A stretch of 64,000 nucleotides of DNA. Source: Octopus vulgaris (Eukaryota). The translations under genes and the position numbers were made by a program. The stretch spans positions 141,794,001 through 141,858,000 of the forward strand of contig OX597818.1 in assembly GCA_951406725.2 (NCBI GenBank), written 5' to 3'. The notes under the pieces are model-generated. The model saw nothing but the letters and a program-made list of their open reading frames with translations. It searched no databases and was not told where the DNA came from. Positions 6,481 to 55,208 of this stretch are shown piece after piece (the first letter of the stretch is position 1; each line of letters starts with the position of its first letter).

Positions 6481-7127
6481 TATATATGAATATATGTATA
6501 TATGTATGTGCATGTATGTATGTTCGTATGTGGGTATATATATATATATATATATATATATATATATATATACACACACACATACACGCACATCTCATAT
6601 TATATACTGAGGATGACCATAAGGTGGTCGGAACCGTGCGGTCTGGTGGGCTCGAGACTCGGAGCTAAAATAGTAGGGGGTTCTCTCCCTGCTTACAATA
6701 CATATCGAGTGCAGAGTGCACTGAATAATCAAACAAAAAAGCGTCCTTCTGGGGTTAAAACAGCAGTATCCTAGGGAACATCCGTGTTTAGCTAGCGTTA
6801 AACGCTACTCCTCAGTATAAATACTGTTTTCATCTCTTAAAGAGATTTTCCTAAATAGGTAATTTGCATATTATGTAAAGATAGTTATATATATATATAT
6901 ATATATATATATATATATACGTGTGCGTGTGTGTACATGTAGATATATGTGTCAGTGTGTATGTATGCGTATATGTGTATATGTTCATGCTATATATATA
7001 CATACATACATACATACATGCATACATACATACATACATACATATATACACACACACACATATATATATATATATATATATATATATATATATATATATA
7101 TATATATATATATATATATAAGTTTAT

Positions 7128-7428
7128 GAAAGAATGGAGTTGAACGACTTGTTAACAAATTTCCTTTATTTTCGACATATGTTTCGAAGGCTGCATATTC
7201 CTAATTCCGAAGGAATAAGGAGTACATTACGCAGATTTCTCATCAGGAAAGGCAAGGAACTTATGTCGACATCAAAATGCACAAAAAACTTTTAGCTGAC
7301 TGCTCTCAAGGAGCCCATGCCCTAGGGACGTAACTTCAACCGTGTTCTTTCCGATGTGAATTTGCTACCCAGGTATCGGTTATCTTTCGAATTATCCTTA
7401 ATAAGATAATTCATTCAACTACTCAAAC
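7128..7428 (-). mobile_element. Short non-coding element, probably a solo Penelope pseudo-LTR, carrying a hammerhead ribozyme
   Basis: Homologous to 27397-27660; flanked by (TA)n on both sides; AATAAA follows the ribozyme. Confidence 0.65.
7170..7250 (-). ncRNA. Type I hammerhead ribozyme motif (canonical core, palindromic stem III)
   Basis: UUUC-CUGAUGA-GAAAUCUGC...GCAGCCUUC-GAAA-CAUAUG-UC/GAAA; predicted cleavage between + positions 7174 and 7173. Confidence 0.8.
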
Positions 7429-8029
7429 ATATATATATATATATATATAAAGTGGACTGTTCCGTGATAGAAAATTCAACAAAAAAAGTACACCATCTGG
7501 TGAGAGATAAATATGCTATTATATTGTACTAGCACATCTACCCATCTCCGATGGAGGTATAACTTGAGGGCGGGAAGTCAAAACAGCAATTTGTATAACA
7601 TTGATAAATGTGTAAATGGACTCGACAGATTACTGGGTAATGTCTTAGAGAAGTCACAATTGTTGGTGATGCAGCATTCCCTAGCAGCTATATGACATTT
7701 GTTTGCGACTAAGTGACGTGTGATAACGATTCACTCCCGTTCCGAAATAGGCACACCTCCTCTGTATCATGAATGGTTATGTGGATCACTCCTAAAGAAA
7801 GCCAGAGCTTCCTTCGACCACTACATAAAATGTAGTAAGAAAAAAATATTATTTAGATATACTTTTATTTTAGTTGTTTACACTATTTTACGCTTGTTTA
7901 TACTCTCATGCATTCAAAGTTCATTAATTTCCATATTTAAATTATGAATTTATTCCTTTCGATAATATCAATATGGTTACAAAACTTTTTGTAGACGATA
8001 TTTTCTGTTTGGTCGACACTACTTGTCAA

Positions 8030-8500
8030 ATTCCTGGAGTCCGTTGCTCTACTCATAGCAACATATAACTGACCGTGTGTAAACATCGGTGTGGGTAAAA
8101 ATACTTCTACCCGATCTAAAGTCTGGCCCTGTGCCTTGTCTGCTGCGAATGCGCGAGCGGATTCTTTATGGTTACAAAAAAATCAAACTAAGACTTAACT
8201 CTCACTGTCCTATGCGAATAATGTCTAAATGTTCTGGTACCGTGGGTTATTTTGATTGACAAAGCTGAGACGTAAACAACAGCCACTTCGATTAGGGGTG
8301 CTGGAATGCAGTCATGATGGCATCTTACTGTTGGACACTGAAGAGAAACATTCCTGCTGCTCGGTATTCTAGAGGTTCGAATAAACGCAATTTCATGCCC
8401 TGAATTTTGAACAATGGTGGCATAACATTTAATATGCATGTACTTATCTTTATCAGTGTCTACGATTCAATTTGCAGCAATCGAAGAAGATTGTGGCATT
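8030..8500 (-). mobile_element. Helitron Rep/Hel remnant (PIF1 helicase C-terminus)
   Basis: Minus strand reads DKAQGQTLDRVEVFLPTPMFTHGQLYVAMSR (about 8045-8140), matching PIF1 motifs V and VI. Confidence 0.8.
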
Positions 8501-8817
8501 TAATTAATAAATCGTGTAAGAAAATATTTTTTTTATCTTAAAAACCTATTTCGGATGGGAAATATTAACAAAAATCAACCGATAATGTAAGAAAAATGTA
8601 CTCAATTTAGTCAGAAGATCGGATTTTTTAAAGATCAACTTACCATAGAAACCTGACCTGATCGAGAGAAACGGATGTCATTTTTGGATTCAGCGGTGCA
8701 AAATTGTTCTAACCCAGTTGAAAAAGCTCACACAACTTACAAAACATGTCTATCTTTTAAATAAATTGTGTATATATATATGAATATATATATATATATA
8801 TATATATATATATATAT

Positions 8818-9696
8818 AAATCCTTAAATCCTTAAAAATGTTTTAGCCCGAAGGCCGCGGCCATGCTGGGGCACCACCGCTGAATGAGCCACACTAGTTT
8901 GTGAATCCACCTCTGATACGTGGCACTTGATCAACAAGGGAGTTCGATGCTGCTGCCCGCATCCGTGTCTCTTGTCGTGAGGTAGGTTCATCTGGGACTC
9001 CCAACAAGAAGAGATCCAGTTTAGTTTTAAAGAAACCCACATCCACACCATGTAAGTCTCTCAGGCATTTAGGGAGGATGTTGAAAAGCTGTGGTCCTCT
9101 GAAACCCAAGCTGTTGCAGTATCTGGACCTGTATTTTGATGGTGATGTTGGAATCCTTGGCACCACGCAGCGGCGCCCGTTCTGCGGTTGGAGTAACTTT
9201 GAATGCCAAAGTTTGGGACAAGACCCTCCAGGATTTTCCAGATGTATATTACTGCATATCTCTCCCGCCTCCGCTCCAGGGAGAAGAGGTTTAATACCTT
9301 CAGTCTTTCCCAGTAGCTGACATTTTGCATTGAGACGATTTTCTTTGTGTAGCTTCTCTGAGTTGCTTCGAGTTCTGCTGTTTGTTTTATATTGTGTGGT
9401 GACCAAAGTTGGGAGCAGTAGTCCAAGCGGCTGAGGACAAATGTTTTCCATAGGACCATCAGTGTCTCCTTCTCTCTTGTTCTGAAAGTTCGGAGAATCC
9501 ATCCAGCTAGCCGTCTGCATTTTATCACCAGATTAGCAATATGCATTTGGAAAGATGCATCATTGCTCATGTCAATGCCCAGGTCACGCACTGATTTTGA
9601 CTCAGGGATTGCAATTCTTCCTGGGCCAGTGTATCCAGTCTTCACGTCATTTACCTTTGTGTGCCAGTAGCGCAGGGCCTGGAACTTACCTGCATT
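8818..9696 (-). mobile_element. 5'-truncated CR1/L2-group LINE, 3' end
   Basis: VRDLGI, RLDYCSQLWSPH, LFSLERRRER and GPQLFNILP; tail (TTTAAGGA)n; flanked by (TA)n. Confidence 0.9.
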
Positions 9697-53082: not shown

Positions 53083-53915
53083 TCCACCTCCAATCACCCA
53101 AAGCACACAAAGACTAATATCCCCTCCAACCTAGCGAGAAGAATCTGCACTATTGTCTCAAATGGCACAACACGAAATAAGAACTAAGGGCAATTCTTCT
53201 CGAAAGACATTACCCATCATTACTAGTGGACAACGGAATAGAACGGGCCAAATCAATTAACACTCAAGACTTACGAAAACCAAAACACATCCACAGTACA
53301 GTAAATAGCCTCCCCTATCTCTCAACACACAATCCAAGAAATGCAGAAGCTTACACTATTATATACAACAACATCCCACAGCTAAATCAAGACCCACGCC
53401 TAAAAAAATTACTCACAGCTTATAAAATAATAAAAAGTAAGAAACAACCTAAATCCCTAAAAAAACCTACTCACCAACGCAAAATTACACAATACAAACC
53501 CACTACCCACAGTCAAAAAATGTGGTCGTTCCAACTGCAGGACTTGCATCCACCTCATTGAGGGATCAACGTACAAGTTCCAGTCGGGACACACCTTTAT
53601 CATAAAAATAATTTCACCTGCGTATCAAAAAATTTACTTTATGTCATAAGGTGTGAAGGGTGCCACGAAGACTACATAGGGCAAACGGGCCTTACCCTCA
53701 GAGAAAGGATGCCAGTTCACCGCCAACAACTGAGGGACCCCACCACAAGACAGATACCACTTAGTGGACACTTAGGCGTCTGTGCACACAATAAGCCCCC
53801 CAAATTCTTAGTTTGGTACTCTTTATATAGAAATTCGGGATCGTATTTATTTGGCAAGTAATTTCATCTGAGACTGTGTGTTGAACCTAAAGCAATTACT
53901 GCGTGGAAGACACAT
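53083..53915 (+). mobile_element. Penelope-like element 3' part with GIY-YIG endonuclease
   Basis: NIPSNLARRICTIVS, CGRSNCRTC and LLYVIRCEGCHEDYIGQTGLTLRERMPVHRQQ..LSGH; followed by non-coding pLTR-like sequence. Confidence 0.9.
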
Positions 53916-54328
53916 TCTTATTTCTTTATTACCCACAAGGTGCTAAACATAGAGGGGACAAACAAAGACAGACAAAAGGATTAAGTCGATTACATCGACC
54001 CCAGCGCGTAGCTGGTACTTAATTTATCGACTTCGGAAGGATGAAAGGCAAAGTCGACCGTTGCAGAATTTGAACTCAGAACGTAAAGCCAGGCGAAATA
54101 CCTATTTCTTTACCACCCACAAGGGGCTAAAAACACAGAGGGGACAAACAAGGACAGACAAACGGATTAAGTCGATTACATCGACCCTAGCGCGTAACTG
54201 GTACTTACTTTATCGACCCCGAAAGGATGAAAGGCAAAGTTGACCTAGACGGAATTTGAACTCAGAACGTTACGCTAAGCATTTCGCCCGGCGTGCTAAC
54301 GTTTCTGCCATCTCGCCGCCTTTAGAAT
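53916..54328 (-). mobile_element. Dimer of the Nin-domain-like SINE family D
   Basis: Two units; 14-bp TSD GGAAGACACATTCT. Confidence 0.85.
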
Positions 54329-54369
54329 GAGGAAGACACATTCTAACCATTGTAAAATACATCTATCTT

Positions 54370-54722
54370 CTATCTCCTGCCCTTAACCTTCCAACGCGGA
54401 GTATAGATCACTTATAGTTGAATTCCATGTCGCATAATTTTTTTATTTCTGTACTTATACTCTGCCACTTACACTCTAGTTCCTTCTGCGTTGATCTACG
54501 CCACGAGTTCTTAGGCCTACCTCTCTTTCTATATCCATCCGGATTCCACTGTAAAGCACTTTTCGCTACATTTGGTGTGTCTTTTCTAATTGTGCTACCA
54601 ATCCACTTCTACTTTTTCTTAAATATTTTCTCCCTAATAGAAACTTGATTTGTTCTTTGCCATAGCTCCATATTGCTTATGCGTTCGGGCCATCTAATTT
54701 TAAGTATACTACGCAAGCATCT
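54370..54722 (-). mobile_element. RTE-group LINE C-terminal remnant
   Basis: CLRSILKIRWP and AKSALQWNPDGYRKRGRPKNSWRR. Confidence 0.8.
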
Positions 54723-54965
54723 GTAAAACACATAGGAACTGTTAACTTTCCTTAATTACTTATTACTTGGTATCAAAATTTTCGTGGCACTATCTACGGC
54801 TTTGTTACTGACACAGTCTCTGACCACTTGCAGTCCTACTGTAACTGATCTGGAGACCTGTATAAAGTAGCTAACTGTGGACCAGGTTGCAGATAGTGTG
54901 CATATATATATATATATATATATATATATATATTTAAAAAAAGGAGATGTCGAACACGAGTGGTG

Positions 54966-55208
54966 ATATATAAAAAAGGAAATGAAGAAAATGCTGACAA
55001 ATAATTGAAGTAATTTAAGTAATTTAATTAAGTGAAAGTTCTTTTTACCGGTTGCGCATTTGTTATGCTTATCAAAATATAAAAAATATTTTTTATATTT
55101 TGATAAGCATAACAAATGCGCAACCGGTAAAAAGAACTTTCACTTAATTAAATTACTTAAATTACTTCAATTATTTGTCAGCATTTTCTTCATTTCCTTT
55201 TTATATAT
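54966..55208. repeat. Near-perfect spacerless palindrome of about 240 bp
   Basis: Centre at 55087/55088; the same peptide is called on both strands in the ORF track. Confidence 0.95.

Follow-up and report, generated by a model that had tools for sequence, protein, structure and literature searches.

Penelope-like elements (PLEs) carry minimal hammerhead ribozymes, for which Cervera and De la Pena (2014; PMC4209133) report weak cleavage as dimers. Natural hammerheads with U3-A8 in the core are known (PMC3088659); about 1,300 U3-A8 hits were reported from Schistosoma, and in Drosophila Penelope an intron ends at helix I (PMC4209133). In the Anolis PLE Poseidon the exchange C3G/G8C partly rescues the hammerhead, and PLE hammerhead cleavage is reported to need the protein of the element (Frangieh et al. 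2024; PMC11167929). Here we describe hammerhead motifs in a window of 64,000 nucleotides of Octopus vulgaris (contig OX597818.1, positions 141,794,001 to 141,858,000), together with their relatives in the 2.8-Gb assembly. Our reading is that these are PLE terminal-repeat hammerheads, and that the parent elements have probably kept the pair between core positions 3 and 8 because it would support a slow, dimer- or protein-assisted cleavage of RNA. One natural PLE family with G3-C8 appears to be a new core variant of this known class and is a predicted ribozyme.

A preliminary description of the window had listed five motifs, with the cores CUGAUGA, CUGAAGA, GUGAACA, UUGAAAA and UUGAUAA, and all five are found where it placed them (Table 1). 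Its start coordinate, 6603, belongs to a sixth motif that it left undescribed. With a relaxed type I descriptor (stem I of at least 2 and stem II of at least 3 pairs, palindromic stem III, GAAA or GCAA), loosened so that the GCAA motif at 55100 would pass, the window gives five matches, and positions 3 and 8 are complementary in 5/5. Thirty dinucleotide shuffles of the window give on average 0.93 matches (at most 5) and 0.27 complementary ones (at most 1). A type I layout had been ascribed to all five motifs; the window copies with G3-C8 fail the descriptor, and the motif at 55100 has A13C. In an Rfam scan of the window, the 150 best of 460 matches include no hammerhead family and are microsatellite and hairpin look-alikes; the output of a repeat finder is dominated by simple repeats.

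The 3-8 complementarity extends beyond the window. As an unselected sample we took 60 stretches of 10 kb (600 kb) and left positions 3 and 8 free in the descriptor. There are 23 matches, of which 18 are complementary (13 C-G and 5 U-A) and 5 unpaired, one of the latter belonging to a C-G family and decayed. There are no matches on the reversed sequence and 7 on four shuffles, none of them complementary; no intact G-C copy occurs in this sample. Among all loci collected, 9 of the 10 clusters with at least two matches are complementary, where the clusters include query-selected families and two of them are one place counted twice. Genome-wide, G3 together with C8 is found 5,656 times versus 2,231 times for the reversed-pattern control, and G3 without C8 6,723 versus 9,347 times; the two columns compared appear to count each place once. 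For A3 with U8 there is no excess (2,435 versus 4,306 in the control, in the extra-nucleotide layout only). From these counts, and from those of the family copies given below, the covariation of positions 3 and 8 across independent families is real. It is also correct, as had been proposed, that a CUGANGA search is blind to the U3 and G3 families.

Intact hammerhead motifs are met about once per 35 kb of the unselected genome. The 600 kb contain at least six further hammerhead families (L192, L202, L212, L221, L228, L233, L242), some with C at position 4 and one more with U3-A8 and the palindrome ACGCGU. Downstream of the endonuclease in L206, L204, L233, L314, L316 and L318-L320 the strict descriptor finds no hammerhead, and the weak matches that follow L187 and L219 were taken for chance.

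The genome was searched with each motif, 40 candidates being scored and 30 loci kept per search; most family copy counts come from best hits and thus lean towards the query. The motifs had been taken for five unrelated elements. Since those at 7240 and 27514 are relatives, there are four families: F1 (7240 and 27514), F2 (24520), F3 (38235) and F4 (55100), with the sixth motif at 6607 as F5. In F1 (1516 candidates genome-wide, 40 scored; copies 98-99% identical) both C3 and G8 occur in 32/32 copies. F2 has G3 in 110/114 and C8 in 108/114 copies, F3 has U3 in 41/42 and A8 in 38/42, and F4 has both U3 and A8 in 37/37. In the decayed F5 the values are 20/32 for C3 and 27/32 for G8, and position 4 is C in 16 copies and U in 11. 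The type I core (C3 U4 G5 A6 N7 G8 A9 / G12 A13 A14 A15.1 / U16.1 H17) is complete in F1, and F2 and F3 have it with a compensated 3-8 pair. The core is closed by stems of 4-6 bp in F1 and by a 3-bp stem I in F3. When intact, F2 combines stems I and II of 7 and 5 bp, the latter with a G-C closing pair, with an extra G, the AAUAUU palindrome and a UUU cut site, and both stems form in the computed fold of such a copy. The window's own F2 and F5 copies are not closed in this way; in F2 the full fold is a trait of the family. A palindromic stem III suited to dimers is present by sequence in F1-F5. In cofolding, the palindrome pairs for F1, F4 and L242, the nearest sister of F4, and is unpaired in the lowest-energy dimer of F2 or F3.

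Table 1. Hammerhead motifs in the window and the repeats that contain them.
Feature	Positions	Strand	Remarks
F5 retrozyme-like unit, old	6603..6880	+	~355-nt unit; core CUGAGGA 6607-6613 (C3-G8); A13G; stem I lacks its 5' strand
F1 truncated PLE terminal repeat	7122..7426	-	7430 in pairwise comparison; between (TA)n tracts; own tail piece inverted at 5' side
F1 hammerhead motif	7170..7250	-	core CUGAUGA 7246-7240 (C3-G8); stem II long; ACAUAUGU palindrome; cleavage predicted 3' of C at 7174
Diverged F1 relative	27392..27657	-	layout as in F1 above; CUGAAGA core at 27520-27514; cleavage predicted 3' of C at 27447; 72% identity over 303 nt
F2 terminal repeat of RT and GIY-YIG PLE	24340..24594	-	tail of ~60 nt at 24340; fold-back onto an inverted arm with its centre near 24542
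F2 hammerhead motif	24482..24532	-	core GUGAACA 24525-24519 (G3-C8); stem II preceded by an extra G; AAUAUU palindrome; cleavage predicted 3' of U at 24489
Inverted F2 arm	24552..24594	+	core GUGAACA 24559-24565; A13G; ends before stem I 3' strand; descriptor failed
F3 inverted pair of PLE terminal-repeat pieces	38095..38367
F3 hammerhead motif	38208..38244	-	core UUGAAAA 38241-38235 (U3-A8); stems I and II of 3 and 5 bp; an extra G; AAUU palindrome; cleavage predicted 3' of U at 38211
F4 terminal-repeat pieces as a perfect inverted pair	54933..55201		from a young Neptune-like PLE; tail of ~35 nt at the left side only; (TA)n surroundings
F4 degenerate hammerhead motif	55098..55131	+	core UUGAUAA 55100-55106 (U3-A8); A13C; palindrome ACCGGU; 2-bp stem I
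F4 mirror copy of the motif	55077-55044	-	core UUGAUAA 55075-55069

Several families here had been described as free of open reading frames (ORFs). Coding parents with a GIY-YIG endonuclease are found for F1-F4. In each of these families a same-strand GIY-YIG frame precedes the motif by 0.5-1.1 kb, and in F2 and F4 a reverse transcriptase (RT) is present too. The F2 parents have a 530-aa RT/GIY-YIG frame, with the motif about 1.0-1.1 kb after it. For F4 there is a full element with direct repeats 4.47 kb apart, an RVT_1 and GIY-YIG frame and a first frame of 472 aa without Pfam match. In F3 an endonuclease piece, 51% identical to that of F2, lies about 0.6 kb upstream of the motif, and the F1 motif follows a GIY-YIG piece with an E-value of 7e-4, under Pfam's cut-off; both loci are too short to extend to the RT. 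The copies carry marks of PLE insertion: an inverted 5'-truncated arm, a one-sided tail, two alternative 3' ends and, in F1, F2 and F4, (TA)n flanks. The one-sided tail is accounted for by the same two RT start sites as in PMC11167929. On these sequence features the window copies of F1-F4 are truncated or inverted PLE insertions and not retrozymes. They are likely inert, and in computed folds the fold-back copies form long hairpins that bury the motif.

Linker and endonuclease motifs, set beside Fig. S2 and section 11 of Craig et al. 2021 (PMC8557442), make F1 resemble Hydra and both F2 and F3 resemble Nematis, while by its endonuclease linker F4 resembles Neptune. These clades share with the families here a C-terminal GIY-YIG, (TA)n targets, an inverted 5'-truncated copy and a one-sided tail; tail lengths here are about 60 nt (F2) and about 160 nt (F1), versus 30-40 bp in that study. 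In the F4 element (L153:4179-5597) the 472-aa upstream frame overlaps the RT frame in another phase, which suggests a frameshift-linked ORF1. Assembled contigs aligned to F4 show no intron joint, and such contigs cannot reveal RNA ends. Beside the F1 relative, near-perfect inverted GC-rich arms of about 30 bp flank a (TA)n tract (27225-27336).

The preliminary description had also spoken of retrozyme-like families. F1-F4 differ from retrozymes in that they have coding parents and lack tandem units, for which a search of the window finds none in these families. Only the motif at 6607 looks like an animal retrozyme. F5 resembles animal non-LTR (non-long terminal repeat) retrozymes (PMC7229834; bioRxiv 10.64898/2026.07.22.740005) in its ~355-nt unit, its 6-bp stem I and 4-bp stem II, and in partial head-to-tail repeats with no ORF found nearby. 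Identity among its copies is 70-80%, and direct repeats of more than a unit are present in about 10 of 30 loci. No parent element of F5 was found; the sole match to a PLE protein is an unrelated fragment of the window.

Within the Nematis-like families the 3-8 pair can be followed between close relatives. A third sister family, F6 (L321-L350), was found through the endonuclease of a relative and is a young, abundant PLE with long open frames. The endonucleases of F2, F3 and F6 are 51-55% identical, and their 3-8 pairs are G-C, U-A and C-G, respectively. Common to the three are the extra G, the closing pair G10.1-C11.1 and the UU cut site; the stem III palindrome of F6 is imperfect. The motifs of F6 and of L278, a tentative single sister copy, were read by eye, both having been missed by the descriptor. 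From the genome-wide excess of G3 with C8 over its control, we estimate about 8,000 F2 motifs on both strands. In metagenomes, 35 stretches hold one weak locus related to the F2 parents. Two candidate F2 elements were rejected: L276 is a segmental tandem, and L281 is an F4 piece joined to the 3' region of F2.

The ends of F2 were mapped in 30 copies, among them two duplicated pairs, which had been selected with a word lying downstream of the motif. In 14 of the copies the start lies between -2 and +10 nt relative to an AG that precedes the core by 21 nt (11-23 nt upstream of the core), 3 extend further upstream and 7 end in loop II, the last partly an alignment effect. At the 3' side 14 copies end at +86 to +92 past the cut site and 16 at +140 or beyond. 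The fold-back centres of F2 copies also fall at the CAG that precedes the core by 21 nt. This CAG, together with a branch-point-like word and a pyrimidine run, lies immediately 5' of the F2 terminal repeat (L279:8940-8970; window boundary near 24545), and the word with its pyrimidine run is present before the AG in 483 exact copies. The site is possibly an intron end or an RNA start.

In agreement with the preliminary description, all this supports PLE-type minimal type I hammerheads with palindromic stem III. Common to the PLE hammerheads of PMC4209133 and the families here are the type I form, a short stem I, an extra nucleotide between 9 and 10.1, the G10.1-C11.1 pair, the palindromic stem III, opposite-strand pairs and mostly solo truncated copies. 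As a class the variants are not new, since U3-A8 in PLE hammerheads is already published there: in the supplementary alignment, Cercyon of Schistosoma has the cores UUGAUAA and UUGAAAA, as found here. In contrast, G3-C8 is found here and in none of the 56 representatives of Fig. S3 of that paper, whose consensus figures are partly legible. Families with A13C or A9C are present here (F4, F6) and not seen there. The swapped pair that was made in the laboratory as C3G/G8C (PMC11167929) is here fixed in nature in the estimated 8,000 copies of F2. No natural G3-C8 hammerhead was found in the published literature covered, outside which lies Lunse et al. 2017, a study that may contain one.

How could such a motif work? 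Two transcripts would pair through the palindromic stem III, or the element protein would refold the RNA, and the paired or refolded RNA would then be cut after UH. Selection for the 3-8 pair would act on source elements and not on the window copies; in fold-back copies the inverted arm would pair with the motif and block its folding. Selection for cleavage, as put forward in the preliminary description, is not demonstrated by the copies at hand: A13C and A9C are fixed in spreading families, and damage is seen at both 6607 and 24520 in the window. Because F4 and the F2 sister spread with these altered cores, selection looks weak or intermittent.

Several observations weigh against a pair kept for cleavage. 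In F4, C13 is found in 37/37 copies (GCAA instead of GAAA) and most of stem I is lost, with 2 bp left, and in F6 position 9 is C, identically in 39/44 copies. The F2 minus arm in the window has A13G plus a broken stem II pair, and the descriptor fails on it. The predicted cut of F2 and F3 follows UUU, and 0/30 F2 copies start at the predicted cut site. Independent changes of the 3-8 pair are few (one G-C family and four U-A families), L278 combines U3 with G8, and the best-hit copy counts are biased as described. Finally, the hammerhead is dispensable for insertion in vitro, catalytic mutants inserting normally, and the RNA reads lack ends at the cut site (PMC11167929). Much of this would also be expected if the fold were kept as a structure near the RNA 5' end, with a protein-binding, folding or regulatory role and little or no cutting in the variant families. 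F4 and F6 are both young and abundant with their altered cores fixed, and have retained stem II, the 3-8 pair and, in F4, the palindrome; nearly half of the mapped F2 copies begin upstream of the core, and Naiads are reported to spread without canonical hammerheads (PMC8557442). However, the 3-8 pair is part of the active-site conformation (PMC3088659), F1, F2, F3 and L242 retain all other core letters and the UH site, and other PLE hammerheads show measurable cleavage (PMC4209133, PMC11167929). We consider a purely structural role rather unlikely. A more specific version, in which one PLE clade of this genome passed through C-G, U-A and a first natural G-C, young and spreading families fixed A13C and A9C, and selection kept the tertiary fold and not the chemistry, the motif being a protein-binding or folding element, we hold to be unlikely and put forward as speculation.

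That a loose pattern fits AT-rich palindromic repeats by chance has some basis in the loosened descriptor, in the one shuffle of 30 that gave five matches and in F4, by itself a weak fit. The shuffled, reversed-sequence and genome-wide pattern controls argue against it, as does the position of the motif within the terminal repeat, which all parents share. The F4 sister family (71% endonuclease identity) has a complete U3-A8 motif with the identical palindrome at a near-equal offset (+706 nt versus +723 nt in F4). Together with the covariation in the unselected genome, this sister has largely refuted chance, which we regard as very improbable. Harder still to credit are miniature DNA transposons with long terminal inverted repeats and no kinship to retroelements. 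The window copies at 24340, 38095 and 54933 are indeed hairpins, the first and last adjoining TA repeats, but single arms of the same sequence also occur, direct repeats of it enclose RT/GIY-YIG frames, and its copies vary in inverted length and have a tail on one side; the RT/GIY-YIG parents refute this explanation. A 3-8 pair kept in PLE parents for slow assisted cleavage is what we continue to favour.

The window contains other repeats. Decayed PLE RT/endonuclease fragments at 53089-53816 (+) and 5852-6467 (-) are 36-72% identical to the F4 protein and unlinked to the named motifs. A 23-bp minisatellite of about 121 copies spans 59602-62410, and two copies of a 250-bp repeat (37323-37572 and 50249-50498) are 92% alike in inverted orientation. 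Tandem dimers of a repeat of about 185 bp, which we take to resemble common octopus SINEs (short interspersed elements), are located at 40028-40396 and 53919-54270.

In PLEs, hammerheads are nearly universal, slow, and dispensable in the sole in vitro system. As the class and U3-A8 are already published, the advance is modest unless cleavage surprises. Still, this genome offers a natural series, with sister families that have C-G, U-A and G-C cores plus successful A13C and A9C families, and thousands of natural G3-C8 copies in one family would mean that hammerheads are undercounted by CUGANGA searches.

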